Shown in pieces: positions 13,599-54,160 of a stretch of 64,000 nt of DNA; within the stretch, counting starts at the first letter, position 1, and each line of letters opens with the position of its first letter. A program made the position numbers and the translations under genes. Below the pieces are notes generated by a model that was given only the letters and a program-made list of their open reading frames with translations, ran no database searches and was not told the DNA's origin. The stretch comes from an uncultured bacterium (GTDB lineage: Bacteria; Krumholzibacteriota; Krumholzibacteriia; LZORAL124-64-63). The stretch covers positions 96,001 to 160,000 of the forward strand of contig CAVSZB010000008.1 in the NCBI GenBank assembly GCA_963732385.1, written 5' to 3'.

Positions 13599-14684
13599 TC
13601 AGGACGGGATGCGCAACTCCGCATCGATCCGCTTCGCCAGCGCGGTCACGTCCTCCGTCGACAAGGTCGTCTTTTTTCGGCGATCTACCAGCGATTGGAT
13701 GAGGCGCTTGGAGTCGACGCGGACAGCGGTGATGCCCGGCTTGAACTCCTTCCAGGCGCGCTCCTCGGCGTTCTTGAGCAGCGTGTCGGCGTCGCGAATG
13801 GAGGCCAGCGCGATGCCGCCCAGATCCCGCTCCAGGGAGTCATACGCCTTGGCCAGGTACCAGCTGCTCTCCGCCAGGTAGGTGCCGACGTTCAGGTGCG
13901 AAATATAGTTGGCGGCGTTCCGGAGCAGCCGGCGCGCCTCGCCGGAACGACCCTGCTCCAGGAGCACGAGCGCTTCCTGGTAGGCGCCGAAAGAGCGCTG
14001 GATGGGGCCGTCGACGTTCGGCAGGGCGACCGCGGCCCGCAGCTGGTCGCAGGCGGCGAGGCACTCGTCACGTTTGCCGTCGCGCTGCAGCCGCATGACG
14101 ACGTCGGTCATGGCGTTGAGGTCGTGCAGTGGATAGAGGAAACGATATTTCTCGAGGTCGAGCTGCAGACGCAAAAACGCCGTCACCGGATCCCCCCGGT
14201 CCCCCTGCTCCATCTGCTGGCGGAACTCGTATATGTCGTCCGTGAGGAGGGAGCTCGGGTTGTTCTGGCGGATCAACTCGTAGAGGATCTGGCAGTTCGT
14301 GCGATCCAGTTCGATGTCGGAGCGATCGTTCTCGGCGATCGAGATGCGCAGGTGGTCCACCCAGACATACAGGGTGTTGCCCACGCGGCGCGCGTAGCGC
14401 AGGGACATGACGCCGCTCGTCCGCGCCGCTTCCGTGACCTCGAGCAGCTGGCCGATCTCCCGGGGGACGCCGGGCGGACGCCCGCGTGAGGGGCCGGCCT
14501 GCGGTTCCGCGCGGGACGCCTCGGGGACCGGCTTGATCGGCCCGGGGGACTGGGCGACGGCAGGAATCGTCTGCCCGACGCCGGCCGCGATGACGACCGC
14601 CGCGGCGGCGGGGACGAACCTGCGGATCGGACGACCGGCCCGGATCTGGCGCCGGATCTTGCTCATGGCCGCTCGGATTCGCAT
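13599..14684 (-). CDS. Hypothetical exported helical protein
   Basis: Signal-peptide-like segment (RRFVPAAAAVVIAAGVG), helical composition, host-like codon use; start uncertain (14684/14666). Confidence 0.65.
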   Translation of the reverse strand: MRIRAAMSKIRRQIRAGRPIRRFVPAAAAVVIAAGVGQTIPAVAQSPGPIKPVPEASRAEPQAGPSRGRPPGVPREIGQLLEVTEAARTSGVMSLRYARRVGNTLYVWVDHLRISIAENDRSDIELDRTNCQILYELIRQNNPSSLLTDDIYEFRQQMEQGDRGDPVTAFLRLQLDLEKYRFLYPLHDLNAMTDVVMRLQRDGKRDECLAACDQLRAAVALPNVDGPIQRSFGAYQEALVLLEQGRSGEARRLLRNAANYISHLNVGTYLAESSWYLAKAYDSLERDLGGIALASIRDADTLLKNAEERAWKEFKPGITAVRVDSKRLIQSLVDRRKKTTLSTEDVTALAKRIDAELRIPS

Positions 14685-14710
14685 CGCTGACCTCCCGGAA
14701 CGGTATTCTC

Positions 14711-14739
14711 TTGATAACCGGGACATTCTGGTCTAATGT
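14711..14739 (+). promoter_or_regulatory. Sigma70-type promoter for the 14801-25119 operon
   Basis: TTGATA (14711-14716), 17-nt spacer, TAATGT (14734-14739). Confidence 0.5.
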
Positions 14740-14800
14740 GGCCCGATTACACTGCATCCTCCCCCGCGCTCCCATTGTATTCTGAAGGGAGAGTCCGTAG

Positions 14801-17158
14801 ATGTCCACAGCTTCCCGCTGCATGCGCCCGGCGGAGGGTCTGCTTGCCGCTCTGGTCCTGTTCGCGCTCGGCGCGAACCCGGCCGTGGCGGCAGTCGCCG
14901 ACCATCTGCTGCTGTCTGAGTTGGTCGTCCAGACACGCGCCGAGATTCCCGCGACGAAGTACATCGAACTGGTCAACCCGACGGCGTCGGCCATCGACCT
15001 CTCGACTGTCTACGTCACGGACGCGACCATCAGCACCACTCCCGCCTACTACTACAACCTCGTCAAACTCGGGGGGCTCGGAGGTGGTGGCGCCAGCGGG
15101 GACTTCCTTGCCCGATTCCCGAACGGGGCTTCAATCGCCGCCGGCGATACGATCGCGGTGGCGATCACCGGCAGCGGGGACTTCCAGACGGCCTACGGCC
15201 ATCTCCCCGATTACGAATTGTACGAGGAGGGGCTCGCGCCGGACAGCGTGCCTGAAATGGTCGAGGCGTTTCCCGGCAGCATCGGACGCGGCCTCGGCAG
15301 CAGCGGTACGAACGTGCCCGATCTGGCGTCGGTCGGCGAGTCGGTCGTTCTGTTCAGCTGGAACGGCCTGACCGACCTGGTGCAGGACCTGGACTACGCC
15401 TTGTGGGGCACTTCGTCATTGTACCGCGTGAGCAAGACCGGGGTGAGGATCGACGGTCCCGACGCCGGCTCCGATTCGACGACCTATCTGGCCGACACCG
15501 AGGTCACGTTGCAGAAGGCCATCGCCACGACGGTGCATGCGTTCGGAAACTCGTTCCAGCGCCTGTCGACCGACGAAGGGACCGAGGCCGCCACCGGCGG
15601 CAACGGCCTGACGGGCCACAACGAGATGAACGAGCAGCTCAACCTGACCTGGCGCGCGAACGCGGAAGACACGCCCGCGGCGGCGCCGCTCGTGGTCACG
15701 CCGCCGGCGCCGATCATCAGCGCCGTCGCGATGCAGCCGTCCGCGCCCGTGGCGGATCAGGCGACCACCGTCACCGCGACCGTGCTCGCGTTCGACAGCG
15801 TGAGCGCCGTGTCCGTATTCTGGAGCGACAACGGCACCACCTGGACCGAGGCGTCGTGCACGAGCACCGGCCTCAACACCTGGGCCGGCCAGATCCCGGC
15901 GCGCCCGCTCGACACGGTCGTGCTCTGGTACGTGCGCGCCACCGCCACCGGCGGCGGCCTCGCCACGAAGCCGGTCGCGGCGCCGAACTATTTCCAGACA
16001 TACACGGTTGCCGCGGCCCCCGAGCCGACCGATTACCCGCCGTTGCTGTTGATCACCGAGGTGTGCGTGCTTGGCTCGGAGAACGAGTTCGTGGAGATCG
16101 CCAATCCCACCGGCGCGGCGGTCGATCTGAGCAACTACTACCTGACCGACGCCATCTACTCCGGCCAGTACTACTGGAACATCGTCCTGCCCAACCCGGA
16201 CCAGACCACGGTGGGCGGCGGGGCGTTCACCGACTTCCATGCCCGCTTCCCGGCCGGCGCGACCATTGCCGCCGGCGATACGATCACGGTCAGTGTGGCG
16301 GGCAGCGACGCCTTCCTCGGCGCCTGGGGCATCCCGCCCGACTACGAGTTGTTCGAGGACGGCTCCGGCCCGGACGACGTGCCTGACATGCGCGAGGTCT
16401 TCCCGGGCAGTATCAACGGCTCATCGCTCCCCTCGCTCACCAACACCGGCGAGACCATGGTGCTCTACTACTGGAATGGCGCTACCGACCTGGTGACCGA
16501 CATCGACCTCTTCACCTGGGGCGCCGGCGGCTCGTATCTCTTCAGCAAGACAGGCGTCAGCATGGACGGCCCGGACGCCGACACGGTGCCGACGGCGTAC
16601 CAGGCCGATACCCCCACGGGCTCGCAGCAGTTGTTCACCACGGCGCATGCCTTCGGCGAATCCTACCAGCGGGTCGACGGTAACGAGGGAACCGAGGTCA
16701 AGACCGGCGGCAACGGCACGCTGGGGCACAACGAGACGAGCGAGAACCTCATGACGACCTTCCATATGGCTGTGGCCACCCCATCGCCGCCGGGCAGCAG
16801 CGAACCGGGCGGCGTCACCGGGGAGATCGCCATCGAGGTGCCTGCGCGCACCTTCCTGCCGTTGCTGGGCGAATCGTTCCCGATCCGCTTCCGTTCGCTG
16901 CGTGGGGCGCACACCGAGTTGCGGATCTACGACCTGACCGGGCGGCTCGTGCTGACGCTGTTCGACAGCCGCTTTGACGGCGCGGCTGCCTCCTCGTCCG
17001 GCCAGTGGACCCGGCGCGACTGGAACGGTCGTGACCGCCAGTTCGAACTGCTGCCCGCCGGCCTCTACGTGGTCCACCTGTCCGCCGTCGATCCGAAGAC
17101 CGGCAACGAAGAGACCAAGACGGCGCCCGTGGTTATGGCCACGCGGCTGAGCAAGTGA
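14801..17158 (+). CDS. Secreted protein with two lamin-tail-domain (LTD)-like repeats and a C-terminal FlgD-Ig/T9SS-like sorting domain
   Basis: Signal peptide; repeats LLLSELVV..YIELVNPT..DLS and LLITEVCV..FVEIANPT..DLS; C-terminal LRIYDLTGRLVLTL...WNGRD..LPAGLYVV. Confidence 0.8.
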   Translation: MSTASRCMRPAEGLLAALVLFALGANPAVAAVADHLLLSELVVQTRAEIPATKYIELVNPTASAIDLSTVYVTDATISTTPAYYYNLVKLGGLGGGGASGDFLARFPNGASIAAGDTIAVAITGSGDFQTAYGHLPDYELYEEGLAPDSVPEMVEAFPGSIGRGLGSSGTNVPDLASVGESVVLFSWNGLTDLVQDLDYALWGTSSLYRVSKTGVRIDGPDAGSDSTTYLADTEVTLQKAIATTVHAFGNSFQRLSTDEGTEAATGGNGLTGHNEMNEQLNLTWRANAEDTPAAAPLVVTPPAPIISAVAMQPSAPVADQATTVTATVLAFDSVSAVSVFWSDNGTTWTEASCTSTGLNTWAGQIPARPLDTVVLWYVRATATGGGLATKPVAAPNYFQTYTVAAAPEPTDYPPLLLITEVCVLGSENEFVEIANPTGAAVDLSNYYLTDAIYSGQYYWNIVLPNPDQTTVGGGAFTDFHARFPAGATIAAGDTITVSVAGSDAFLGAWGIPPDYELFEDGSGPDDVPDMREVFPGSINGSSLPSLTNTGETMVLYYWNGATDLVTDIDLFTWGAGGSYLFSKTGVSMDGPDADTVPTAYQADTPTGSQQLFTTAHAFGESYQRVDGNEGTEVKTGGNGTLGHNETSENLMTTFHMAVATPSPPGSSEPGGVTGEIAIEVPARTFLPLLGESFPIRFRSLRGAHTELRIYDLTGRLVLTLFDSRFDGAAASSSGQWTRRDWNGRDRQFELLPAGLYVVHLSAVDPKTGNEETKTAPVVMATRLSK

Positions 17159-17169
17159 GAGGGGAAGCG

Positions 17170-18080
17170 ATGATCAGGAACTGGACGGGACCGCTGCTCG
17201 CCCTCGCGCTGTGTCTCTGCGCGCTGCCGGCCGCCGCGAGTTTCGACAATGTCTCCGTCAGCCCGCGCGCCCGTGCCATGGGCGAGGCCGGCGTTGCGCT
17301 GGCGGACGATGCCTTCGCGCCCTACTTCAACCCGGCCGGCCTGGCGATCCTCGCCGAACCGACCGCGGGAGCCAGCTATATCCGGCCGTTCGCCCTGTCG
17401 TTCGCCGACTTCGTCTACTTCGGCGGCGCCGTCCCCCTGGGGGGCGCGCCGGCGTGGTGGGCGTGGGGCTGCGGCGCTTCGGTGTGGAGTACGGCGGCGT
17501 GGACCTGCTCCGTGAGACCACGCTGACGCTGGCGCACGGCCTGCGCGTCTACGAGGACCTGCACTCGACCCTGCGCGCCGGCTATGCGCTCAACGTGTAC
17601 AACCTGAAGTTCGGCCCGACCGTCGGCGAGGACGGCGCGGGCACCAACGGGCTCGACCCCGGCAGCGACACCGTGGTCGGTCTCGACGCCGGCCTGCTGG
17701 TGACCGTGCACGAGCGCACGCGCCTGGGCGTCATGGTGAAGAACCTGAACAACCCGCAGATCGGCCTCGACAACGAGGAGATCGGCCGGCGCCTCCAGGG
17801 CGGCGTGGCCTATGCGCCGTACGCGGGGGTCTGGACGACCTTCGAGTTCGAGAACGTCCTGGGCCAGGACGTGATCTACCACGGTGGCGTCGAGGTGCTC
17901 ATGGACTACGGCCTGGCGCTGCGCATGGGCGTCCTCTCGAACCCCGACAAGCTGACCGCCGGCTTCGGCTACCGCTGGCGCAGCCTCGGCGTCGACTATG
18001 GCTATTCCACCGGGGGCGGCACCCTCGACGGCAGCCATCAGTTCGGGCTGACCTGGGCCCTGGGCGGTGAGGCCAAGTGA
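17170..18080 (+). CDS. PorV/PorQ-like outer-membrane beta-barrel, frameshifted at the G6 run 17439-17444
   Basis: N-part SPRARAMGEAGVALADD..YFNPAGLA; continues in the -1 frame to VDYGYS...SHQFGLTW; one extra G joins the frames. Confidence 0.8.
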
Positions 18081-20614
18081 CACGCCGACGCCCAGCGGGC
18101 CCGCGCGGCGGGCCGGCCCTGATCGTGGCGCTGGCGTTCCTGGTGCTTGGCGCCGTGGCCGTGGCGCAGGAGGCGCCGCGGCTCGATCTCAACCGCTCCA
18201 CGCTCGAGCAGATGCAGGCCCTGCCCATCGACGCCGGCCTGGCCCGGCGCGTCTGGGAGTACCGCACCTACGAGCGCTTCTTCGCCAGCGTGTATGATCT
18301 CATGGATGTGGAGGGGATGACGGCGGCCGACCTCGAGCGGCTCAAGCCGCTCGTTTCGACGATGCCGCCGGGCATCGAGGACGCCCAGATGGCGCGCCTG
18401 GAGGCGAGTTACCGGCAGGTGCGGCAATTCCTCGGCCAGGAGGGGACCAACGAGGGGCTCGTGGATGAGTACCTCGACCAGTTGCGGGATCCGGTCAACG
18501 TCAACCGGCTCGATCTTTTCGACCTGATGTCGTACCAGAACATCTCGCCGGTGGATGCCGCCAACCTCATCAAGGCGCGCCGCCGGATCGGCGGTTTCGC
18601 CGATGCGCGCCAGCTCCGCGGGACCGAGGGCCTGCGCTACTACAGCTTCCGCAACCTGCGCGATTTCGTCACCTACGCCGATGCCGATTCGGCCGACCGG
18701 TACGACAGTCGCGTGCGCGGCAGCTACGAGATCCGGTACTACGACACGCCGTACGGCACCAGCGACCTCGACGTGATCGCCACCAGCACCGGTCAGATCT
18801 TTTCCGACCGCCTGCCGTCCAACCCCTACGCCGAGGGCGATCAGCAGTCCGATCCGACCATGACCCAGAAGCTGCGCCTGAATTTCGGCAACGGTTTCCA
18901 GGGCGGGCTGCTCACACACCGCAACCTCGGCGAGCGCTCCTGGCACGAGACCGTCAAGGGGTACTACGGCGTCAACGACAAGACCATCGGGGGCTTCCAC
19001 CTGAAGCGTCTCGTGTTCGGCAACTACCGGGTGGCGTTCGGCCTCGGCCTGATCATGGACAACACCGACTTCACCCTGTTCCGCAAGACCGGGTACGGCT
19101 GGAACGTCCGCCCGATCGGCCTGCGGGGCGACCTGAGCCGCACGCGCGAGTTCGCGCTGACCGGCGCCGCCGCGGAGGGGGTGTACGGGGGCCTGCACGC
19201 CACGGCGTTCGTTTCCACCGGTCGCAAGGACGGCATCCTCAATCCCGACGGGACCATCAATCGCTACGTCGTGATGACCCCCCGTCCGTCGGAGGAATAC
19301 CTCGACGCCCACCTCACCAGCGGTGGCGCGCCGACCGGGCTGCGGCGCGAGGCGTTCCGTGAGGACATCTTCGGCGGCAACCTGCGCTACATGCTGGGCG
19401 ACGGCACCTATGTCGGCGTGACCGGCTACGAGACGCGCTACGACCGCGGTTTCGATCCCGATCCGACCACGCTCTTCGCCGCCGCGGACATGGCGCGGCT
19501 CGAGGAGCGCGACAGCGAGATCTGGTCCGGTTACAGCAGCGTGCGCATCGATCCCGACACCGGCGAGCGGGTGGAGCACAAGTTCCGCCGGATCTACGGC
19601 GCCGATTTCCAGGCGGTGGCCGGCAACGCGGCCATCCAGGGGGAGTACGGCGTGCTGCAGGATCCAGGCGCGTCGCTGTTCCACGGCGCCAACCGCGACG
19701 CATTCATCGTCAACGGCTATGCCCAGTGGGAGGACCTGCACCTGCTGGCGATCTACCGCGACTACGACCTGGGCTTCGACAACCCGTACGGACGCGCTTT
19801 CTCGAACGACTCGCGTTACGAGCAGACGCTGATCGATTCCCCCTTCCGGATGCAGGACGACCTCTACTCGTTCCTGTCGCTGCGCACCCCGCAGCCGAAG
19901 CCGGAGCAGGGATTGTTCCTGCAGTCGCGTTACCGCATCAGCCGCACGCTGACCATCACCGGGCTCGAGTACGATCAGTGGAAGCGCAAGGCCGACGGCA
20001 TGGACATGAGCCGCTACACGCTGCGCGCGGAGTACCAGCCGATCTTCAACCTGCGTTTCCGCCTGCGGCACCGCTACAGCAGCCGTGGCGAGCAGTTTCC
20101 CACCGACGTCCGCGAATACCGCAACTGGGAGACCCGCTGGGAACTGCTGACGCTGCTGTCGAACTACAACAGCCTGAAATTCATGTACATGACCAGCAAC
20201 GTCATGTTCCCGGTGCGCCCGCGGCTAAGCTACCCGGCCGACCCCGGCACGGGGGAAAGCGCGGTCGGCACCGCCGGCATCCCGGCCCATGCCTTCCAGG
20301 CGATCTACGAGCACAACCTGACGCCGCACATCCGTCTCCTGTTCAGCAGCGAGGTCTATGACGGATTCCTCTGGAATTTCGAGGGGAACGAATTCACCAC
20401 CGTCGATGGCCGGGGGTTCCGCAACTGGTTCCAGTTCGAAAGCCGGGTCTCCGACCGGCTGCTCTACCAGCTCAAGATCACCCGCGACCACAATCTGCCG
20501 CACACCTGGGTCGACATCCGGAGCTACGGCGGTCCCATCGGACTCGAGCCGGAGGGCGCCTACGCGTCCAGGGACATCACGTCTGTCCGCATGCAGCTCG
20601 ATTACACCTTCTGA
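18077..20614 (+). CDS. ComEA-like helix-hairpin-helix domains fused to an outer-membrane beta-barrel
   Basis: Two HhH units (LDLNRSTLEQMQAL..., VNVNRLDLFDL...GGF), GNYRVAFGLGL, C-terminal beta-signal MQLDYTF. Confidence 0.8.
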   Translation: MTRRRPAGPRGGPALIVALAFLVLGAVAVAQEAPRLDLNRSTLEQMQALPIDAGLARRVWEYRTYERFFASVYDLMDVEGMTAADLERLKPLVSTMPPGIEDAQMARLEASYRQVRQFLGQEGTNEGLVDEYLDQLRDPVNVNRLDLFDLMSYQNISPVDAANLIKARRRIGGFADARQLRGTEGLRYYSFRNLRDFVTYADADSADRYDSRVRGSYEIRYYDTPYGTSDLDVIATSTGQIFSDRLPSNPYAEGDQQSDPTMTQKLRLNFGNGFQGGLLTHRNLGERSWHETVKGYYGVNDKTIGGFHLKRLVFGNYRVAFGLGLIMDNTDFTLFRKTGYGWNVRPIGLRGDLSRTREFALTGAAAEGVYGGLHATAFVSTGRKDGILNPDGTINRYVVMTPRPSEEYLDAHLTSGGAPTGLRREAFREDIFGGNLRYMLGDGTYVGVTGYETRYDRGFDPDPTTLFAAADMARLEERDSEIWSGYSSVRIDPDTGERVEHKFRRIYGADFQAVAGNAAIQGEYGVLQDPGASLFHGANRDAFIVNGYAQWEDLHLLAIYRDYDLGFDNPYGRAFSNDSRYEQTLIDSPFRMQDDLYSFLSLRTPQPKPEQGLFLQSRYRISRTLTITGLEYDQWKRKADGMDMSRYTLRAEYQPIFNLRFRLRHRYSSRGEQFPTDVREYRNWETRWELLTLLSNYNSLKFMYMTSNVMFPVRPRLSYPADPGTGESAVGTAGIPAHAFQAIYEHNLTPHIRLLFSSEVYDGFLWNFEGNEFTTVDGRGFRNWFQFESRVSDRLLYQLKITRDHNLPHTWVDIRSYGGPIGLEPEGAYASRDITSVRMQLDYTF

Positions 20615-20630
20615 CGAGGAGCCTGAAGCG

Positions 20631-21947
20631 ATGAAGCAGAGAATGCGCAATCGGGCGGGCCGGCCGGCGGCGGTCGTGACGGGCCTGGTCGCCCTGCTGG
20701 CCGCGACGGTGGCAGGACCGGCCGCGGCCGATCCCGCGCTGCATACGCGCTACGGCGACCCGGCCACCTCGCTCTCCGCGGAGATCGACGCCATGGCCGG
20801 CACCGGTACGGCGCTCTTCCGTGGCGGCTTCTCGAACGTGCTCAACCCGGCCATGCTGGCCGCGGGCCCGGACGGGACGACCCTGGACGGCTCGCTGTCG
20901 CTCGCCCAGGCGCACGAGGACCGCTATATCCCGCTTTTCGACACGTTCACGAGCTACGTGACCGACACGGCCATCGCCTCGAACCGGCACCACTACTTCG
21001 GCACCGGTTTCGCCGTGGCGCACCGCCTGCCGTTCGCCTGGCGTCCGATCACCGCGGCCGTCTCGCTGACCGACCGCTACAGCTTCGCCTACGATTTCAA
21101 CGAGCAGATCCGCGACCCCGATACCTTCAACAGCCCGCGCGACGCGGTGCTGCAGGAGCGCGCGGTGGAGATCGACGGCACGCTGCGCGCGCTGTCCGGC
21201 GGTGCCGCCATCGAGCTCGGTCCGCGTCTGTCCCTGGGCGTGGCGGCCCACTATGCCTTCGGCACCCGCGACCAGATGCGCCGCGTGCGTGACTACGCCA
21301 CGCCGTCGTCGAGCCTGCTGGAGGATGCCAGCTTCGACATGGAGGGGCTGAATTTCACGTTCGGCGCCCGATTGCATGTGGATGAGCGGCTGGAACTCGG
21401 GCTCACCTACGAATCGCCGCTGGCGGTGACCGGGAGGACGCTGACCGAGACCTATTTCGGCGCCTATCCCGATTCGGTGCTTTCGGTTACCGGCACCACC
21501 GGGGTGGACTATCCGCGCGCTTTCCGCGCCGGTCTGGCGTACCGCCCCCGCAGCGCGCCGCGCACCGTCTTCACGGTGGATGCGGCCTGGCGCGAATGGA
21601 GCGAACTTGATGACAGCCGGCTGGCGGGAGACAACCCGCTGCTGTTGCAGGACGCGATCGACGTGAGCATCGGGGTGGAGCACCGGTTCTACAACGGCCT
21701 GCCGGTCCGGTTCGGATTCCGGCGGCTTGACTCCTACGATGACCGTGAGGTCGGGGCCTCGTTCTTCACGGCAGGTGTCGGTCTGGACGCCGGCGGAGGC
21801 ACGGTTTCCGTCTCGACGGAACTGAGCAAGACCAACAGCATTCGCGACCACTGGTTCGCCTACCCGGCGACCTTCGTGGTCGAGCAGCAGGCGCGCGTGG
21901 AGGATACCCGGTTCCGCATCGGCGTCGGCTGGAGTCGCGCCTTTTGA
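20631..21947 (+). CDS. FadL/OmpP1-like outer-membrane barrel
   Basis: Signal peptide, AMAGTG...NPAML N-terminal motif, amphipathic strands, ends GVGWSRAF. Confidence 0.7.
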   Translation: MKQRMRNRAGRPAAVVTGLVALLAATVAGPAAADPALHTRYGDPATSLSAEIDAMAGTGTALFRGGFSNVLNPAMLAAGPDGTTLDGSLSLAQAHEDRYIPLFDTFTSYVTDTAIASNRHHYFGTGFAVAHRLPFAWRPITAAVSLTDRYSFAYDFNEQIRDPDTFNSPRDAVLQERAVEIDGTLRALSGGAAIELGPRLSLGVAAHYAFGTRDQMRRVRDYATPSSSLLEDASFDMEGLNFTFGARLHVDERLELGLTYESPLAVTGRTLTETYFGAYPDSVLSVTGTTGVDYPRAFRAGLAYRPRSAPRTVFTVDAAWREWSELDDSRLAGDNPLLLQDAIDVSIGVEHRFYNGLPVRFGFRRLDSYDDREVGASFFTAGVGLDAGGGTVSVSTELSKTNSIRDHWFAYPATFVVEQQARVEDTRFRIGVGWSRAF

Positions 21948-23314
21948 CCACGCTCCCGGGAGGAGCTGACACCTTGCCGCATACCGGCCGATCCTCGCCC
22001 GCGCGGCGTGCCGCCCTCGCGCGGTTCGCTGCGTTACCGCTGCTCGCCGTCCTGGGGCTGCTGGCGGGCGGCTGCGGCGATTCGGCCACCTCGCCCGAAC
22101 CGGTCACGGTGGTTGCCCGTTTCACCGGTCTGTCCGGGCGGCAGGTGGCCTGGTCCACGAACGTTCCCTCGCGCGGCGCCGTGCGCTACGGCTTCGTGAG
22201 CGGGCAGTATGACCATATAGCCTGGCCGGCGGCGGCGGGCGGGGCGGACAAGGCGTACACCCAGAGTCACGCCGTGCCGTTGCTCGACGATGTCACCGGA
22301 CGCACGGTCTTCATCCAGTGCATCGACGTCACCCAGGAGGGATTTTTCGCCGCCGCGCAAGAGACCGCCCTCACCTTCGCCGCCATGCCGGCGACGGCGC
22401 CCCTGCTCCGCTTCACCTCGGTCGACGTCCAGTTCGGCGATGCGCAAGTGCTGCGCCTGCCGACGGCCGGCAGCGTGGTCGCCATCGACGGCGGCAATCC
22501 CTATGTGACCGTCAGCGGCGAGACGGCGCCTCAGCACGTGATGCACTGGCTGGACGACCGGGGCATCACCCGGCTCGACGTCGCGCTCGCCACGCACATG
22601 CACGGCGACCACGTGGGCGGCCTGCTCCGGGACGGCGCCGGCGGCGTGGGCCTGCTGGAGCATTGCCAGATCGGTCTCTACCTCGACGTGCCGGCCGTGA
22701 CCGGCAATGCCTACAACCAGGTCGCGGTGAATACGATCCTGGCCGAACGCGAGATCACGAAGCGGATCATCGCGCCCGGCATGACCTCCGCCACCGAGCC
22801 CGACGCTCTCGACTGGGACTCCGCCGTGGAGGTCATGGTGCTCAACGCCGGCGCCCAGCCGGAGTGGGCCGGCGGCGACCTGAACAACGACTCGGTGGTG
22901 CTGAAGATCAGCTACGGCGCCGTCGACCTGATCACGGGGGGCGACTGCCTCGTGCTGGGCGAGACGCGCATCCTGACTTACTTCCCCGGCGCGCTGGCCG
23001 GCGTGGAGTACTTCAAGGCGAGCCACCACGGTCGCGCGAACGCCAACAGTCTGGCCTACCTGATGGCGATCGCGCCGCGGTTGTCGGTGATCCCGGTCGC
23101 CTTCATCGCCTACAACGAGGGCCCTGACCAGGGCGCGAAGGACACCGCGCAGACGCTGGAACGCCTGGCCAACCTGCGCACCGACGTTTTCCGCTTCGAC
23201 GCGGCCGCGCCCCTGGCCCGGCCGCAGGACAACCATACTTTCTGGCATACGACGTTCACCACCGACGGCGCCAGCTACGAAGTGCGCATCGAGCCGTCGG
23301 TCTGGGGGCTGTAG
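21944..23314 (+). CDS. Lipoprotein with ComEC/Rec2-type metallo-beta-lactamase-fold hydrolase domain
   Basis: Lipobox LAGGC; DVQFGDA, IDGG, THMHGDHVGG, NNDSVVL, KASHHG. Confidence 0.85.
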   Translation: MTTLPGGADTLPHTGRSSPARRAALARFAALPLLAVLGLLAGGCGDSATSPEPVTVVARFTGLSGRQVAWSTNVPSRGAVRYGFVSGQYDHIAWPAAAGGADKAYTQSHAVPLLDDVTGRTVFIQCIDVTQEGFFAAAQETALTFAAMPATAPLLRFTSVDVQFGDAQVLRLPTAGSVVAIDGGNPYVTVSGETAPQHVMHWLDDRGITRLDVALATHMHGDHVGGLLRDGAGGVGLLEHCQIGLYLDVPAVTGNAYNQVAVNTILAEREITKRIIAPGMTSATEPDALDWDSAVEVMVLNAGAQPEWAGGDLNNDSVVLKISYGAVDLITGGDCLVLGETRILTYFPGALAGVEYFKASHHGRANANSLAYLMAIAPRLSVIPVAFIAYNEGPDQGAKDTAQTLERLANLRTDVFRFDAAAPLARPQDNHTFWHTTFTTDGASYEVRIEPSVWGL

Positions 23315-23364
23315 CGCCCCTGGCCCGCGGCCGGTTTGCCGGCCGGCCGTCCCGAGGAGAGATC

Positions 23365-25119
23365 GTGATGCAAGTCGCCAATGCTTCCGTCGCCCGTCGT
23401 TCCCTCGTCCCCGCCGCCGTCCGCCGCGGCCTCCTGGCCGCCGCTGCGTTGGCGCTGGCGGTCGCTCTCGGCGGCGCCGCCGTCCCCGCGGGGGAGCCCG
23501 AGGATGGCGTGCTGCGGATCCATCTGCTCTGGACGAACGACCTGCACGGCCACATCGGCCCGGAGGGGGCCCGCTTCATGAACCCCAACTTCCCGCCCCC
23601 GCTCGGCGGCGCCGCCTCGGCGGCCGCCTACATCAGGCGGGTGCGGGAGACGGCGGCCGCGGCGGGCGAAGAGGTCCTGCTGGTCGATGTGGGCGACATG
23701 TTCCAGGGGACGCCGGTCGGCACGAAGACGCAGGGCACGTCGGTCATCGACTACTTCAACCACATCGGGTATGACCTGGCCGTGCCGGGCAACCACGACT
23801 TCGATCTCGGCCGCCAGAACGCCGAGCGCCTGGCCCGCCTCTCGCAGTTCCCCTGGCTGTGCGCCAATCTCGTCGAGAAGGACACCGGCAAGGTGGTCGA
23901 CTGGTGTCGGCCCACGCTGATGCTGGAGAGGGGCGGGTTGAAGATCGGCGTGATCGGCATCATCACCCCCGGCACGGCGAGCATGTCCTTTCCCGCCAAT
24001 ATCAAGGGCCTCGATTTCCGCCCGATGGCCGACACCGTGACGCAGTATCGTGACGAACTGCGGGCGCAGGGCGCCCAGCTCATCTTCCTGGCCATCCACG
24101 ACGGACTTCCGTTCAACGCCGAGCAGGCGTGGCGCAAGCGCGTGGAGTCGGCCGAGGAGGACGCGCTGCGGCCGCAGCGCAGCTTCGGCACCTATGGCGG
24201 CCTGGGGCTGGACGGACTGGTGGCGGAGGTGCCGGGGATCGATTTCGCCGTCGGCGGCCACACCCACCGCGGCTACACCGAGCCGTGGGTCGACCCGGTG
24301 CACCACACCCTCTGTTTCGAGTCGTACGGCAACGGCTCGAGCCTCGGCCACGCGATCCTCGAAATCGACCGGCGCACGGGCGGACTGATCGGCTGGAAGG
24401 GGCCGCACGACCAGGGGGTCCTGGTCAGCCTGTTCGAGGACGAGATCTGGCCCGACGAGGCGACGCGACAGGTCATCCAACCGTGGCTCGAAAAGACCGA
24501 CGCCGAGATGAACCGGGTCGTGGGGCATCTCGCGGTGAATCTGCCCCGCGGCGGCGCCGGCAACAACCTGGTGGGAAACCTGGTCACCGACGCGATGCGG
24601 GCGCAGTTCAACGCCGATCTCGCCATCCAGAATCTGGGCGGTCTGCGCGCCGACATGCAGGCCGGCGAGGTCACGGCGCGGGACATTTTCAGCGTGCTGC
24701 CGTTCGGCAATGAACTGGTGGTGGCGAAGATCCCCGGTGAGCTGCTGCTGCGACTCTTCGAGCGCAAGGTGGCCGGTTCTAGCGGCGGCATCTGCGTGTC
24801 CGGTGCGCAGGTCGAGTTCAACCCCGACCGCCCGGACGGCCAGCGGCTCTGCTCGCTGACGATCGGCGGCGCGCCGATCGACGCCGGCAAGGTCTACACC
24901 ATGGTTCTGACCAACTACCTGATGGAAGGCAACAGCGGCCTCGAAATGCTGACATCGGTGCCCGAGACGGATGTTGAGCCGACCCGGCTCACCGATGGCG
25001 AAGTACTCGAGGCGTATCTGCGGAAAGAGGGGACCGTCCGGCCGAAGCTGGACGATCGCTGGCTGGAGCAGAGAGGGTGCGCCCGGGCCGCCTACCTGCC
25101 CCCGCCGGGCGCCTCCTGA
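23365..25119 (+). CDS. Bifunctional metallophosphatase/5'-nucleotidase (UshA/CD73 family), possible Tat substrate
   Basis: TNDLHG, DVGDMFQG, GNHDFD, GGHTH, NLGGLR, LPFGN; RRGLL signal. Confidence 0.92.
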   Translation: MMQVANASVARRSLVPAAVRRGLLAAAALALAVALGGAAVPAGEPEDGVLRIHLLWTNDLHGHIGPEGARFMNPNFPPPLGGAASAAAYIRRVRETAAAAGEEVLLVDVGDMFQGTPVGTKTQGTSVIDYFNHIGYDLAVPGNHDFDLGRQNAERLARLSQFPWLCANLVEKDTGKVVDWCRPTLMLERGGLKIGVIGIITPGTASMSFPANIKGLDFRPMADTVTQYRDELRAQGAQLIFLAIHDGLPFNAEQAWRKRVESAEEDALRPQRSFGTYGGLGLDGLVAEVPGIDFAVGGHTHRGYTEPWVDPVHHTLCFESYGNGSSLGHAILEIDRRTGGLIGWKGPHDQGVLVSLFEDEIWPDEATRQVIQPWLEKTDAEMNRVVGHLAVNLPRGGAGNNLVGNLVTDAMRAQFNADLAIQNLGGLRADMQAGEVTARDIFSVLPFGNELVVAKIPGELLLRLFERKVAGSSGGICVSGAQVEFNPDRPDGQRLCSLTIGGAPIDAGKVYTMVLTNYLMEGNSGLEMLTSVPETDVEPTRLTDGEVLEAYLRKEGTVRPKLDDRWLEQRGCARAAYLPPPGAS

Positions 25120-25142
25120 CCTGCCCGGACTTCTCGTCGGAG

Positions 25143-25172
25143 GCGGCCGGACCGGCGTCCGGCCGCTTTTTT
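25143..25172 (+). terminator. Rho-independent terminator closing the 14.8-25.1 kb operon
   Basis: GCGGCCGGAC-CGGC-GTCCGGCCGC-TTTTTT. Confidence 0.85.
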
Positions 25173-25326
25173 GCGCCCTCCTGGCCGACCCGTGCCGGTT
25201 CGCGGTGAGGCCTCAAGCCGGTCCATCCCCGGCCGAATCAAACCCGTACGTGGCAATCATCTCCGCGCCGGCGACCCGGATCGCCTCCCGGCGCCGGAGC
25301 GCAACCTTCGACCGGAGGTCGACGGA

Positions 25327-26571
25327 GTGGTTCAGCTCAGGCCCGAGCGGACGAACGAACAGCTCCAGCGTTTCGGCTCCCGCATGAACAAGATGATCGT
25401 CGGCCAGCCCCGGGCCATCGATCGGATCACGGACAGCTTCAGCCGACTCATCGCGGGGATCCAGGACCCCGAGCAGCCGCTGCTGACGATGTTGTTTCTG
25501 GGGCCCACCGGGGTCGGCAAGACCGAAACCGTGCGCGCGCTGGCCGAAACGATCTTCGGCAACCGGCGGGCCTTCACCCGGATCAGCTGCCAGGAGTATT
25601 CGGCGCACTACAACATCTCCAAGCTGCTCGGTTCGCCCCCCGGCTATGTCGGCGGGGAGATCCGCCCCCTGCTCGCACAGGAGAATCTCGACCGTCACCA
25701 CAAGAAATCGCTTGAGAACCAGTCGGGCATGATCTGCGAGGCGGGCGGCAAGCTGAGCCGGTTGTTCCCTCCCGACTCCGACCGCAACCTGGCGATCGTC
25801 CTGTTCGACGAGATCGAGAAGGCCCACCCCAAGATGTGGAATCTGCTGTTGGGGATTCTGGAGGACGGCCGCCTCGTCCTGGGCAACAACGAGGAGGTCG
25901 ACTTCACGCGGGCCATCGTCGTGCTGACCACCAATGTCGGCAGCGAGGCGATGGGCGCCCATCTGACCCAGAGCCAGATCGGATTTTCCGCGGGCAGCGA
26001 CGCCAACGAGCTCAATCGCAATCTAGATGAGGCGGCCCGGCGCGCCGCCCGCAAGGTCTTCCCGCACGAGTTCCTCAACCGCTTCGACGACCTGGTCACG
26101 TTCCAGTCGCTCCAGGAGGCGCATCTGTTCCAGATCCTGGACAACCAGATCGCGCAGATCCACCACCGCTCGTTGCGATGCGCGGAGCCGTTCCTGCTGG
26201 AGGTCACGCCGGCCGCGAAGCGACGGCTGGTGGAGGCGGGCACGGACGCCAAGTTCGGCGCGCGTCCGCTCAAGCGGGTGGTCGAGCAGCGTCTGGTCAC
26301 CCCCATCTCGCGCTACATCTGCAGCGATCAGATCCGCAAGGGCGACCTGATCACGGTCGACCTGATCGGCGAGGAGTTCGTATTCCTCAGGGAGACGGGC
26401 GTGACGAGCTGGGAGGAGCTGGAAGGACTCGGCCCCTTCCCGCCGGCCAAGTGGGCGCGGACAGACCTCGGCGTGAAGGATGATGGCGGCGAGAAGAAGG
26501 AGATCGTCGAGAACGCAGTGCGCGTGGACGCCCACGCCGGCGTGCTGGAGGGCGTCGGCGCGCCCGAGTGA
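25327..26571 (+). CDS. Stand-alone ClpA/B/C-type second AAA+ module (AAA_2 + D2-small)
   Basis: GPTGVGKT, GSPPGYVG, VLFDEIEKAH, IGF loop, EFLNRFD, GARPLKR; start inferred at GTG 25327 after GGAGG. Confidence 0.85.
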   Translation: MVQLRPERTNEQLQRFGSRMNKMIVGQPRAIDRITDSFSRLIAGIQDPEQPLLTMLFLGPTGVGKTETVRALAETIFGNRRAFTRISCQEYSAHYNISKLLGSPPGYVGGEIRPLLAQENLDRHHKKSLENQSGMICEAGGKLSRLFPPDSDRNLAIVLFDEIEKAHPKMWNLLLGILEDGRLVLGNNEEVDFTRAIVVLTTNVGSEAMGAHLTQSQIGFSAGSDANELNRNLDEAARRAARKVFPHEFLNRFDDLVTFQSLQEAHLFQILDNQIAQIHHRSLRCAEPFLLEVTPAAKRRLVEAGTDAKFGARPLKRVVEQRLVTPISRYICSDQIRKGDLITVDLIGEEFVFLRETGVTSWEELEGLGPFPPAKWARTDLGVKDDGGEKKEIVENAVRVDAHAGVLEGVGAPE

Positions 26572-48472: not shown

Positions 48473-51400
48473 TCAGTAGCGCTGCTGCCACCGCAGATCG
48501 AGGCCCGAGGCCTCCTCGTTCTGACCGTAGGTGGAAATCAGCTTGAAGAGGCGGCTGAGCGTGTATTCGAGGGTCATGAAGTAGGATCCGCTGCGCTCGA
48601 GCGATTGGTGGTATTTCAACAGCAGGCGCGGGTTGATGAACTTGCCCAGCACCAGGGTGCTGCCGCCGGCGGTGTCCGACCCGATCTGCACCTGGTCGAC
48701 GCCGATCCTCCCCGACACGCTGTTCTGGAACCCGGTCGCGCCGAAGAGGAGGGCCAGCCCCTGCAGGTTCCGGCTCAATTGCTGGACCGGCGACTGCTCC
48801 CCGTTCAGGCTGACCCGCTGGTCGGTGTCGAGTTCGTTGAGCGGCCGCCCGAAGAGCAGGAAGGCCATGATATCCGCCTGGATCATCTCCGGCTCCGATT
48901 CCAGAACGATCCGGGGCTGTTGGGAACTGCCGGTGACCTTGATGCGGACCCGGGTGCCGTCGATGTCGGCGACCAGCACCAGGTCGACCGACGGGTTCAA
49001 GGGGATGCTTCCCGCCAGATCGAACCCGCCGCTCTCCACCGTGAAGGTGCGATTGAAGGCCCGCAGGGTTCCCTCGACGACCCGGAGCCTGCCCCGCAGC
49101 ACCGGCGCGGGCCGGCCGCTCCCGTCCAGGCCTCGGACGATCCGGATGTCGCCGGCCAACTCGGCTTCCAGTCCGTAGCCGATGACCTTGAAATTCCCCG
49201 GGATGAGCACGTGCAGGTCCAGGTCCGGGACGAAGAGCGGGGAGACCTCCGGCACGGAGGCGTCGCTGCGTCGCCACGTGGCCCCGGCCGGGCCCGACGA
49301 GTCGGCGGCGGCTTCCCGGGCGGCCGTCCACAGGGCGGCGGCGCCGCTCGCCGGGTGCAGAAGGGGCTGGCTCTCCTGCAGGCGGATCAGGCCGCTGGTG
49401 ACGGTGGACTCGCCAGCCAGCCGCGGATCGACAAGCCGGCCCGTCACGCCGATGTTCCCCGTCAGGTCCAGGCGGGAGCGGTTCGGCAGGTTCACCCGCA
49501 GACCCCGGGTGCGGATCACGCCGCTGATCGCGCTGTCGGTCGCCGGCGCCGCCGTCGCTGCGGCGCGGGAGACCGCCACGCCTGCTCCCACCGTCAGGTT
49601 GCCCTCCAGCGAGACGTCGGTGGGCAGGAAACCGTTGATGAAGGCGAGCGGCAGTTCCTGCTCGTTAAGGTCGAGCCGGCCGTGGCCGGCCGCCGCCGGG
49701 AACCAGCGCCCGCTGGCCGCATCGATCCGACCGGGCCAGGTCAGCGAACCGCTCACCAGGCGGGTCTCGCCGATCCCGAAGGTCAGGTTTCCCGCCAGCC
49801 CCGCCGTGTCCCCGGCGGCGAGGTGGAAATCGAGATCGATCCGGGCCTCGGGTTCCTGGTTGCGCGGGATAAGGCGCACGCCGGCGCGCCCCTGGAACAC
49901 CGGCGCCCTGCCCGCGGCGGTGCCCAGGTTCGACAGGTCGGCCACGCCCGACACGGCAAGATCGGCCCCTTCGTCCGCCGACCAGAATGGCGAAGGGAAC
50001 AGCGATTCCAGCCATTCCCTGGACAGCAGCAGATCAAGACCCGCCGCGAGCATGAGTCCCTCCCCGGCGAGGCTTGCGTCGAGGTCGAGACTGCCCGGGT
50101 CTCCCCTCAGGTGCAGCGTGCTGACGGAAAGATCCCGCGGTCCCGGCCCGCTGCGCAGCGTGAAGGGGGACGCCGCGTGGATCTCCTGACCCGCCGCCGT
50201 GAACACCAGCGTGTCGATCGTGGCGGTTCGCACGGTATCCCCGGCGGCGGAGCCCCGCAGCCAGCCGGTTGTCTCGGGAGCCCAGACGTGCAGGAGGAAG
50301 TCCCCCGCCGGGATGCCGCCGGTGGAGAGGGGGCGCCCCGTCCACGCCACGGCGAGCGAATCGACTGCTACGGAGCCGAGACGTACGCCACCCCGCGCGC
50401 GTGCGCGAACCTGCAGTTCGCGGGGCGAGCCGACGAGGGTCGCCTGGAACTCCGACAGGTCGAAATCCTGGGTCAGGAGGTGACCGTTCAGGTTCCCTTC
50501 TCCCTGCAGATCCCGCCACGGTCCCGAAATCCGCAGCCGGGAGACCAGGCCCAGGTCGGTCACGCGCAGGCTGTCGGGCAGGAGCAGATCGAGCAGGCCG
50601 GTCCCGTCCATTGTCAACGTCACCGCGAGGTCGGCCTGCGCGGTGTCCAGGTCGCCCGAGGCGAGGATGCCCGTGCCGCGCAGCGCCACCGCCAATGAAT
50701 CGACGCGCAGGTGTCCCAGGGCCCGGGACCGCGGGGCCACCTTCGCGTGGCCCACCAGCAGGCCACGGTCGAGCCATGGTGTGCGGCCAAGGTCCACGCG
50801 CAGGTCGGCACTCAGTTCTGACCATGAGCCGTCGAGCCCGCCCTCCAGATCGAGGTCGATCCGGCTGAAGGCCGCGCGGTCGATCCCCGCCGGCAGTCCG
50901 GCGGCGGCCCGGGCGACCCCCGGCAGCTGCCACACCGAGGCGATGGTGCCCGCCGCGGTGGCCGTGGCCGTGATCCGCGGGTCAGCCAACGGCCCGACCA
51001 CGGCGCCTGTCGCCTTGAGCCGCCCCCGGACGCCGGCCAGCAGGCCCGGAGCCAGCAGCGCGGGAAATTCCAGGTCCTGAAGGTCGGCGGTGACGCGACC
51101 GTCGATGGTCGCGCCGTCCCAGGCTCCCGAGGCCTCGAGAGTGGTCCCGCGCCACTGCAGACCGAGGGCATCCACGCGCAACTGCCGGAGCCGGGGTTGC
51201 GGCCGCAGGCTGACCAGCGCGGACCCGCGCCCCATCCCGCGCCGCAGGTCGGCCGAGGGGTCCAGGTCCAGCTCGGCGTCCAGCCGCAGGTCGGTGGCGG
51301 TGCCGTGGCACTGCAGGCCGAGGCGTCCCGCGAACTCCCGCATCACCATTCCGGGCAGCGGGTTCTGCAGGGGGACCGGCACCCGGGCGTGGAAATGCAG

Positions 51401-52252
51401 TTCGGCGGCGAGGTCGCCAACGTCGTCCCGCCAGGATCCGCGGACCGACAGATCCAGCGGTCCGGTCTCCACCTGCAACGAGTCCGCGCGGAAGACAAAC
51501 GCGGGCAGGCGGCCCACGAGCGAGTCGAGGGTCACCGCCCGCGTGGCGGCATCGTACGTCGCGGCGGCTCGTGCGGAGGCCAGATCCACCGTCCAGAGCG
51601 GAGCGATGCGCGATTCCGCCCGCCCGCTCAGGCTCCGCACGACCAGTTGCGGCGTCCCGCCGGCCAGCACGGATGCGGACCCTGTCACGGCCATGTCGGC
51701 GGCCACGATCCCGTCCGGCAGCAGCAGGCGGTCCACCGCCACGTCGAGTCCGCGCACCCGCAGCGAGGGCAGCGTCGGCACGCTGCCGGCGCGCAGGAAC
51801 GGAACCGGCGCCACGCCTTCGGTCCGGGCCGGCATCATGGCCAGCGGCCGCAGGAGCTGCTGGATCCCCGGCAGGTCCAGCCGGGACGCGGTGGCTGTGA
51901 ACTGCTCCACCAGCAGGTCATGGCCGCGCAGCCCCCGCAAGTCGATCCGGACCACGGCGGATTCGACCACGGCCAGGGTGTCGATGGTCGTGCCGTCGGC
52001 AGCGGGAGCGGTCCAGACCAGATCGCGCCCCGCGAAGCTGTCCAGGCGTGGCCAGGACCAGTGCCCGTGGAGTTCGCCGGGCAGTGTGCGGAGGGCCCGG
52101 CCGAGTCCTGCGCCGAGCCAGACGCCCCGCAGCGACGGGAGCAGGAACGAACCGACCAGCAGCACGACCGTCCCCACCGACCCCACCAGGACGAAGCCGA
52201 TCGCTCTGCGCACGGCCTTCCAGGCGGGCCTCGGCACGCGCCCGCCTACCAT
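48473..52252 (-). CDS. tamB: Translocation/assembly module TamB-like protein
   Basis: N-terminal TM anchor, long beta-rich body, C-terminal LESEP..QADIMAFLLFG, LGKFINPRL, DLRWQQRY; coupled to TamA. Confidence 0.8.
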   Translation of the reverse strand: MVGGRVPRPAWKAVRRAIGFVLVGSVGTVVLLVGSFLLPSLRGVWLGAGLGRALRTLPGELHGHWSWPRLDSFAGRDLVWTAPAADGTTIDTLAVVESAVVRIDLRGLRGHDLLVEQFTATASRLDLPGIQQLLRPLAMMPARTEGVAPVPFLRAGSVPTLPSLRVRGLDVAVDRLLLPDGIVAADMAVTGSASVLAGGTPQLVVRSLSGRAESRIAPLWTVDLASARAAATYDAATRAVTLDSLVGRLPAFVFRADSLQVETGPLDLSVRGSWRDDVGDLAAELHFHARVPVPLQNPLPGMVMREFAGRLGLQCHGTATDLRLDAELDLDPSADLRRGMGRGSALVSLRPQPRLRQLRVDALGLQWRGTTLEASGAWDGATIDGRVTADLQDLEFPALLAPGLLAGVRGRLKATGAVVGPLADPRITATATAAGTIASVWQLPGVARAAAGLPAGIDRAAFSRIDLDLEGGLDGSWSELSADLRVDLGRTPWLDRGLLVGHAKVAPRSRALGHLRVDSLAVALRGTGILASGDLDTAQADLAVTLTMDGTGLLDLLLPDSLRVTDLGLVSRLRISGPWRDLQGEGNLNGHLLTQDFDLSEFQATLVGSPRELQVRARARGGVRLGSVAVDSLAVAWTGRPLSTGGIPAGDFLLHVWAPETTGWLRGSAAGDTVRTATIDTLVFTAAGQEIHAASPFTLRSGPGPRDLSVSTLHLRGDPGSLDLDASLAGEGLMLAAGLDLLLSREWLESLFPSPFWSADEGADLAVSGVADLSNLGTAAGRAPVFQGRAGVRLIPRNQEPEARIDLDFHLAAGDTAGLAGNLTFGIGETRLVSGSLTWPGRIDAASGRWFPAAAGHGRLDLNEQELPLAFINGFLPTDVSLEGNLTVGAGVAVSRAAATAAPATDSAISGVIRTRGLRVNLPNRSRLDLTGNIGVTGRLVDPRLAGESTVTSGLIRLQESQPLLHPASGAAALWTAAREAAADSSGPAGATWRRSDASVPEVSPLFVPDLDLHVLIPGNFKVIGYGLEAELAGDIRIVRGLDGSGRPAPVLRGRLRVVEGTLRAFNRTFTVESGGFDLAGSIPLNPSVDLVLVADIDGTRVRIKVTGSSQQPRIVLESEPEMIQADIMAFLLFGRPLNELDTDQRVSLNGEQSPVQQLSRNLQGLALLFGATGFQNSVSGRIGVDQVQIGSDTAGGSTLVLGKFINPRLLLKYHQSLERSGSYFMTLEYTLSRLFKLISTYGQNEEASGLDLRWQQRY

Positions 52253-54099: not shown

Positions 54100-54160
54100 G
54101 GCACCTGCATCATAACGGCTTGGCGGCCGGGATGCCCACAAATGCGAGCGCCGGGCCTCC

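Follow-up and report, generated by a model that had tools for sequence, protein, structure and literature searches.

Extracellular DNA is a large pool of phosphorus, nitrogen, and carbon, and its passage over the outer membrane in bacteria of the Fibrobacteres-Chlorobi-Bacteroidetes (FCB) group is only partly known. Among the closest described systems is ddbABCDEF of gut Bacteroidales, a DNA-utilization locus organized like a polysaccharide utilization locus (PUL), which is needed for the depletion of DNA and for nucleobase release (PMC12478041, PNAS 2025). ExeM and Xds share an architecture of lamin-tail domain (LTD), OB fold, and EEP domain, of which the OB and EEP parts are required and the LTD is not (PMC6085458, PMC6746945). 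The locus described here is a six-gene operon (g1-g6) in a 64,000-nucleotide window (the whole stretch of DNA analyzed: positions 96,001 to 160,000 of contig CAVSZB010000008.1, assembly GCA_963732385.1) from an uncultured bacterium of the Krumholzibacteriota type. Five of its genes form a conserved core encoding (i) a surface protein with a C-terminal sorting domain (CTD; g1), (ii) a PorV-like barrel (g2), (iii) a helix-hairpin-helix (HhH) barrel (g3), (iv) a FadL-like barrel (g4), and (v) a nucleotidase (g6). This core may function as an outer-membrane foraging module for extracellular DNA or RNA with g3 as the gate, a reading to which a probability of about 0.5 is assigned; that it serves nucleic acids in some capacity, all readings combined, is very probable.

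The operon is real. Six forward-strand open reading frames are packed between positions 14801 and 25119 with intergenic gaps of -4 to 50 nucleotides, as had been proposed from the letters of the window alone (hereafter, the sequence-only reading). The domain calls of that reading hold as well, since Pfam and NCBIfam recover the two LTD stretches, the PorV-like, FadL-like, metallo-beta-lactamase (MBL), and 5′-nucleotidase assignments, and two HHH_3 modules. Taken together, what it observed is partly confirmed, and its interpretation, a locus that binds, cuts, imports, and dephosphorylates DNA, is partly supported.

The sequence-only reading made conservation of the gene set across FCB genomes a check on its proposal; the core of five is conserved in order across several FCB-group phyla, but g5 is not. 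Because the loci compared are kin and the distant ones are the best 80 of 423, the locus counts overstate their independence. The closest loci are named Krumholzibacteriia or similar. Seventy-three close loci keep the order g1-g2-g3-g4-g6 where sequence permits, with the g1 CTD in 63/63, g2 in 67/68 (the remaining one also being visible on inspection), g4 in 65/65, and g6 in 51/51. Synteny inside this close family alone proves little and was dropped as evidence because the flanking genes are syntenic there too. Ten loci of two other families have a complete core where testable, and on 80 distant metagenome contigs with GC contents of 26-58%, g1 is found in 57/57, g2 in 64/64, g4 in 73/73, and g6 in 49/49, while the five flanking genes of the window are found at 0/80. 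A lower distant tally for g2 (31/66) was discarded as an artifact of leaving out overlapping frames. The remaining gene, g5, is present in 7/51 close loci, 5/8 loci of the two other families, and 0/49 distant loci; it is accessory, and the six genes were rejected as the conserved unit.

The taxonomy of most distant loci is based on source names and a FastTree tree. Distant g3-type proteins carry source names from Marinimicrobia, Fidelibacterota, Calditrichaceae, and the cultured Caldithrix abyssi, in which Calab_1208 is annotated as a g3 homologue; 17 distant contigs placed in the tree group with Marinimicrobia and Fidelibacterota rows. Within the phylum, the g3 barrel occurs in 95/208 genomes, with three families at 83/90, 3/7, and 8/10 and six others at 0/100. 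When 21 g3-negative genomes were searched, the g3 profile gave HhH-sized matches only, in four of them, and the g2 profile gave an orthologue-level match in one, at a contig end. The type IX secretion (T9SS) protein SprA is encoded in 70/70 phylum genomes that are at least 95% complete. Set against the 0/100 for g3, this distribution indicates that the operon comes and goes as one block and does not belong to the core of the T9SS.

A more remote relative of g3 is a 680-residue HhH protein of Bacteroidota (hhalign probability 98% over 366 columns, from HhH2 into the barrel), which has a single HhH module, the aligned one corresponding to HhH2 of g3. Directly upstream of this barrel in Parabacteroides distasonis lies a g2 homologue (the PorV-like and HhH-barrel pair spans L194:5998-8881), but in three other Bacteroidales loci the barrel stands alone. 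BT3167, an HhH protein listed in the available part of PMC10434189, may be the Bacteroides thetaiotaomicron counterpart. A scan of viral contigs with the Bacteroidota homologue gave no match. No RNA sample appeared among the listed carriers, a negative that is silent on expression.

The main support for the foraging reading comes from the parts that are exchanged between loci, whose common thread is nucleic acid. The CTD of g1 is constant and its passenger varies: LTDs in family f1, 1-4 OB-fold units plus Big_5 in families f2 and f6, and LTD plus OB in distant loci. The OB folds of f2 and f6 resemble those of ExeM/NucH (E 1.5e-14 and 2.8e-17). An EEP nuclease-family domain is found in 45/80 distant loci; it replaces the C-terminal domain of g6 by fusion in 4/4 scanned cases and is a separate lipoprotein in three loci. 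An extra upstream CTD protein is present in 35/37 distant loci, and seven upstream proteins of distant loci that were scanned exceed the cut-off for Por_Secre_tail in six cases and for DUF5689 in one. One extra upstream protein matches the N-terminal region of ExeM (E 1.6e-42). The nucleic-acid theme and the conserved gene set of the sequence-only reading gain from synteny beyond the neighborhood of the window and from the exchange of parts for OB folds and EEP; its interpretation is weakened by the scarcity of g5 and by the HhH signature discussed below.

Several of the same parts could belong to a T9SS-linked envelope module that acts on other phosphoesters or in surface-protein assembly and uses its HhH modules for protein contacts, as in GspK. 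The HhH region of g3 also matches GspK models, an LTD paralogue in the genome is fused to a purple-acid-phosphatase domain, g4 resembles BamG, and the MBL, UshA, and EEP folds each include enzymes for non-nucleic-acid substrates. However, nucleic acid is the only theme shared by the four separately swapped parts (OB, DUF5689, EEP, and ComEC-type MBL), and the SprA and g3 distributions given above argue against a core T9SS component, which makes such a module improbable.

A type IX-like secretion system in Krumholzibacteriota is suggested by (i) SprA (TIGR04189, 451.6 bits, above cut-off), (ii) a PorU-like gene that reaches 416.8 bits against a cut-off of 420 and is followed by PorV, and (iii) more than 80 CTD-like cargo proteins. 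SprA lies at G000 C4:162482-166537 and the PorU-PorV pair at C7:222581-227055 (L206). The genome also encodes a NupC-family transporter, so that routes for g1 export and for nucleoside uptake are both plausible.

The g1 protein comprises LTD repeats of ~250 residues each with an Ig-like spacer and a sorting domain at residues ~676-785; full-length relatives (f1) carry 2-6 expanded LTD repeats. The structure model of a repeat (pLDDT 93) has an expanded lamin-tail fold, and its best structural match is the DUF4876 protein BT_1938 (4q1z; Z 15.2, rmsd 3.2, 205 aligned residues). A hidden catalytic domain was considered and rejected, as none is seen in this model, which covers the repeat alone. A profile of the g1 CTD matches more than 80 C-terminal domains across the genome, and the best NCBIfam match of such CTDs is the PorU C-terminus, weakly and under curated cut-offs. 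At L204:4858-7485 (G000 C7, ~1590900-1593500), a g1-repeat paralogue is joined to a purple-acid-phosphatase/metallophosphoesterase domain and also to a CTD.

The homology of g2 to the PorV/PorQ family is clear from sequence comparison (E 1.7e-7 to PorV, 6h3i), although the intact orthologue of the same genus scores 65.5 bits with NF033709, under the cut-off of 90. In the present assembly, g2 is split into two frames by a G run at ~17440 that is one base short. Both same-genus genomes are in frame at this run, the extra base is present in contigs of 3/4 sequencing runs (the contig of the fourth ends inside the run), and no other uncompensated one-base indel separates the coding regions of the operon from those of a short-contig relative (L031). 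A homopolymer assembly error is likely, with a real slip as the alternative, and g2 is intact in relatives. The sequence-only reading had overlooked this frameshift.

The g3 protein has HhH modules at residues 34-97 and 138-200 and a barrel at residues 214-845 that ends in a C-terminal Phe. A count of the DSSP list gives 24 long strands for the AF2 model (pLDDT 80, pTM 0.80). In an even-stranded outer-membrane barrel, the N-terminus is the periplasmic end. Foldseek and VIA searches return generic barrels only (Z up to 14.5, rmsd 4.5-9), so that the modeled barrel appears to be without a close solved relative; such generic matches do not prove a new fold. TonB receptor, usher, and LptD identities were rejected or found unsupported, given these searches and the lack of a PF00593 match. 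All nine PF00593 matches of the genome lie outside the operon, which bears out the earlier statement that it has no TonB component. Alignments of the g3 model to BtuB and Cir begin at residue 112-113, against the N-terminal regions of BtuB and Cir, which weakly suggests a location of the linker and HhH2 in the barrel lumen. HhH2 conserves an SPVDA motif, R168 (90%), R181 (94%), and Y188 (99%) across 150 rows. A distant g3 homologue, P0179, has a TPR-containing N-terminal extension of ~430 residues.

HhH1 superposes on ComEA (8dss) with Z 11.8 and rmsd 1.3 over 65 aligned residues, and the TIGR01259 score is 29.6 bits against a cut-off of 152. The DNA-binding signature of ComEA consists of G-h-G hairpins and a basic surface. 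The ComEA of this genome has LPGLG and SGIG hairpins and a net charge of +5, in contrast to both HhH modules of g3, so a built-in ComEA ratchet is doubtful. The modules have the ComEA fold, with PF12836 over cut-off, but the signature is largely changed, HhH2 keeping only part of it. A plug or substrate sensor fits the N-terminal HhH part better than a free ComEA.

The ComEA-like fold raises the question of natural transformation, in which the barrel would be a pilus-independent outer-membrane entry that feeds ComEC. The genome has ComEA and ComEC; the ddb loci have the Riemerella transformation system as a relative (PMC12478041), and DUF5689 occurs in one relative of the operon. Against it, two secretins lie elsewhere in the genome and ComEC is on a different contig. 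Moreover, the nucleotidase ends the operon in all testable loci (51/51, 8/8, and 49/49) and is often joined by nuclease-family domains, as suits degradation. In the available text of the Riemerella screen (PMC8459023), the HhH gene has its domain at residues 236-301, unlike the g3 family, and the outer-membrane gene is DdbC-like. A role in transformation is quite improbable. PF18942 (DUF5689) has no match in the present genome, and the B. thetaiotaomicron positive control gave matches.

The g4 barrel may serve as a channel or an anchor. It was rejected as the housekeeping BamG since it falls under the NF053685 cut-off and the genome has a better BamG match at C7:41180. The motifs HMHGDH, NNDS, GGD, and KASHHG of g5 are kept in 90% or more of 14 rows, and g5 is closer to the MBL domain of ComEC (E 5.6e-19) than to Pce (E 0.035), an identity that was rejected on this comparison. 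It was also rejected as ComEC itself, with which it shares the MBL domain alone; PF03772 (Competence domain) matches only a gene on C7. Its absence from most loci weakens the earlier proposal that the MBL is the cutter of the operon. Two ComEC-type MBL proteins with CTDs (G000 C6:123666-125591 and C7:1223394-1224683) keep a C-terminal YGHP motif, unlike g5. The metal-binding motifs of g6 are DLH, GD, GNHD, and GHTH, and its best PDB match is 3ivd (E 4e-54). Its score of 171.8 with the UshA equivalog model is under the cut-off of 600, so that its substrates need not be those of UshA. A plain signal peptide, with neither CTD nor lipobox, suggests that g6 is periplasmic.

In the foraging reading, g1 would leave the cell via the SprA translocon and be held on the surface by its CTD bound to g2, as PorU is by PorV and type B cargo by PorP-like barrels. 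Substrate may be gathered by avidity through its LTD repeats, 2-6 in number, or through the OB-fold repeats found in their place. Cutting would fall to an exchangeable nuclease: the g5 MBL here, an EEP domain in many of the Marinisomatota-like loci, or else secreted nucleases that are unlinked. The resulting nucleic-acid fragments would be admitted by g3, whose HhH part, facing the periplasm or lying in the lumen, could behave as a plug or sensor. Small products might pass through g4, or g4 might anchor a partner. In the periplasm, g6 would probably dephosphorylate these products to nucleosides and phosphate, with NupC importing the nucleosides. One candidate for such an unlinked nuclease, a member of the EEP family that bears a CTD, is encoded at L205:3717-5570 (G000 C5:381716-383581).

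A number of observations weigh against this reading. No recognizable catalytic domain or site is found in g1 by domain scan or in the model of its repeat, and no nuclease gene lies in the sequenced part of 44/51 close and up to 35/80 distant loci. DUF4876, the best match of the LTD repeat, sits in iron-induced TonB-receptor loci (tables of PMC10434189), and the LTD is dispensable for Xds and largely so for ExeM activity (PMC6085458, PMC6746945); the LTD fold alone is thus no sign of DNA. Over 150 rows, HhH1 has a mean net charge of -4.5, on the acidic side, and its first G-h-G hairpin is gone; in HhH2, the first hairpin carries an invariant Asp and the net charge is ~0. The conserved charges of the barrel are balanced (~20 basic versus ~20 acidic). 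The FadL-family BamG is a lipoprotein anchor and not a transporter (PMC12611786). The Bacteroidota relatives of g3 are without g1, g4, and g6 nearby in 4/4 loci. Lastly, an energy source for polymer import is not evident.

Some of these points would suit a system that scavenges nucleic acids or nucleotides without importing polymers, in which g2, g3, and g4 anchor or scaffold surface binders and hydrolases and only nucleotides or nucleosides enter. The degenerate HhH signature, a barrel without basic excess, and the lack of a TonB-type energizer are consistent with it, and PorV, PorQ, PorP, and BamG are each anchors for surface proteins (PMC5562754, PMC9143113, PMC12611786). Yet the 24-stranded barrel of g3 is far larger than the 14-stranded anchors, its HhH modules stand at what is the periplasmic end of an even-stranded barrel, and g6 is likely periplasmic. 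Scavenging of this kind is unlikely, and the foraging module with g3 as its gate is preferred.

A bolder extension of the foraging module is that the HhH-barrel family constitutes a third outer-membrane route for nucleic acid, beside pilus-secretin systems and the TonB-dependent DdbC. This idea is tentative and rather doubtful. It would entail a pore of 24 strands for which the built-in HhH modules are the gate and which is fed by a T9SS-displayed receptor; the family would go back to the ancestor of the FCB group and range from deep-ocean Marinisomatota to gut Bacteroidales. If true, abundant uncultured lineages would recycle dissolved DNA in this way. The operon supplies a candidate channel family without a close solved structure and links nutrient capture with surface anchoring of the type IX style in a host that is not of the Bacteroidota. 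It is also amenable to testing: Calab_1208 of cultured Caldithrix abyssi is annotated as a g3 homologue, and genetically tractable Bacteroidales have distant ones.

The boundaries of the operon and its genes are listed in Table 1. The sequence-only reading had named a single promoter and a single terminator. A consensus scan listed neither element; the former is favored by upstream alignment and the latter by folding. The promoter candidate scores 8/12, below the threshold of that scan, but both of its boxes, the ribosome-binding site, and the ATG start recur in 7/7 aligned upstream regions. The terminator stem occupies positions 25143-25166 with the T6 tract after it, and 2/200 shuffles fold equally well. 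As for the claim that every product is exported, by-eye reading of the sequences finds signal-peptide-like N-termini on five products and a lipobox (LAGG-C) on g5.

Table 1. Operon features in window coordinates
Feature	Position	Strand	Basis
Likely sigma-70-type promoter, TTGATA-17-TAATGT	14711..14739	+	Sequence; boxes kept in 7/7 aligned upstream regions
g1, 785 aa, signal peptide, two expanded LTD repeats, C-terminal T9SS-type sorting domain	14801..17158	+	PF00932 58.5 bits
g2, PorV/PorQ-like outer-membrane barrel, ~300 aa, frameshifted ~17440	17170..18080	+	NF033709 matches on both pieces
g3, 845 aa, two HhH modules and predicted 24-stranded beta-barrel	18077..20614	+	PF12836 58.8 bits; AF2 model
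g4, FadL-family (BamG-like) barrel, 438 aa	20631..21947	+	PF03349 E 6e-5; NF053685 64.6 bits, cut-off 250
g5, lipoprotein, ComEC-type MBL domain, accessory gene	21944..23314	+	Motifs; ComEC MBL match
g6, UshA-like 5′-nucleotidase/metallophosphoesterase, 584 aa	23365..25119	+	PF00149, PF02872 above their cut-offs
Likely intrinsic terminator, 10-bp GC stem, 4-nt loop, T6	25143..25172	+	Folding, z -2.7

Divergent from the operon lies a gene of 375 residues (window positions 13599-14726, reverse strand) that has no family over cut-off and tblastn matches in 4/73 close loci. A stand-alone, single-domain Clp-type AAA+ ATPase (25171-26571, forward strand) is found 3′ of g6 in Krumholzibacteriia loci and in 0/80 distant loci; here, the terminator stands between it and g6. 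A TamA (Omp85)/TamB gene pair is located at 48476-54141 on the reverse strand.

The sequence-only reading considered the system undescribed. No published description of the operon or of the HhH-barrel family was found in the searched literature, most subscription papers being outside its scope, nor was a functional study of the 680-residue Bacteroidota protein, and a term search of the main text of the Caldithrix abyssi genome paper (PMC5317091) gave no matches. This holds for the machinery; the idea of a PUL-like DNA-utilization locus, however, has already been published for Bacteroidales (PMC12478041). By comparison with that work, what is known is the concept, and what would be new is a machinery with a TonB-unlinked gate and a T9SS-type anchored receptor.

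Like ddbABCDEF, as far as the available text describes it, the present locus would combine a surface binder, an outer-membrane barrel, and surface and periplasmic nucleic-acid hydrolases with exchangeable subtypes, and DUF5689, the domain of DdbD, occurs in an extra gene of one distant relative. The Riemerella transformation genes RA0C_RS04915/04920 are ddb-related in turn (PMC8459023). The ddb locus and the operon differ in that DdbC is an annotated TonB-dependent transporter with the lipoprotein DdbD, whereas g3 is a predicted 24-stranded HhH fusion without PF00593; the binder here has a T9SS-type CTD and its own PorV-like barrel, and the FadL-like barrel and nucleotidase are core. The placement of a CTD gene directly before a PorV-family barrel recalls the T9SS pairs PorU-PorV, PorZ-PorQ, PG1035-PorP, and SprB-SprF (PMC5562754, PMC9143113). 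In this case, however, the cargo is a non-catalytic LTD/OB repeat protein, the pair is joined to two more barrels and a nucleotidase, and the host is outside Bacteroidota. With ExeM and Xds (PMC6085458, PMC6746945), the operon variants share LTD, OB, and EEP, which form one polypeptide there and are divided here between a surface protein and either a nucleotidase fusion or a lipoprotein, beside three barrels. The HhH2-type fold of g3 is that of ComEA (8dss, 2duy; TIGR01259; rmsd 1.3-1.9), but it is fused twice to an outer-membrane barrel, with the G-h-G hairpins and basic surface largely changed. The Bacteroidota HhH protein, which is homologous to g3 and has a g2 homologue upstream in P. distasonis, differs by its one HhH module and by four loci that have none of g1, g4, or g6 nearby.

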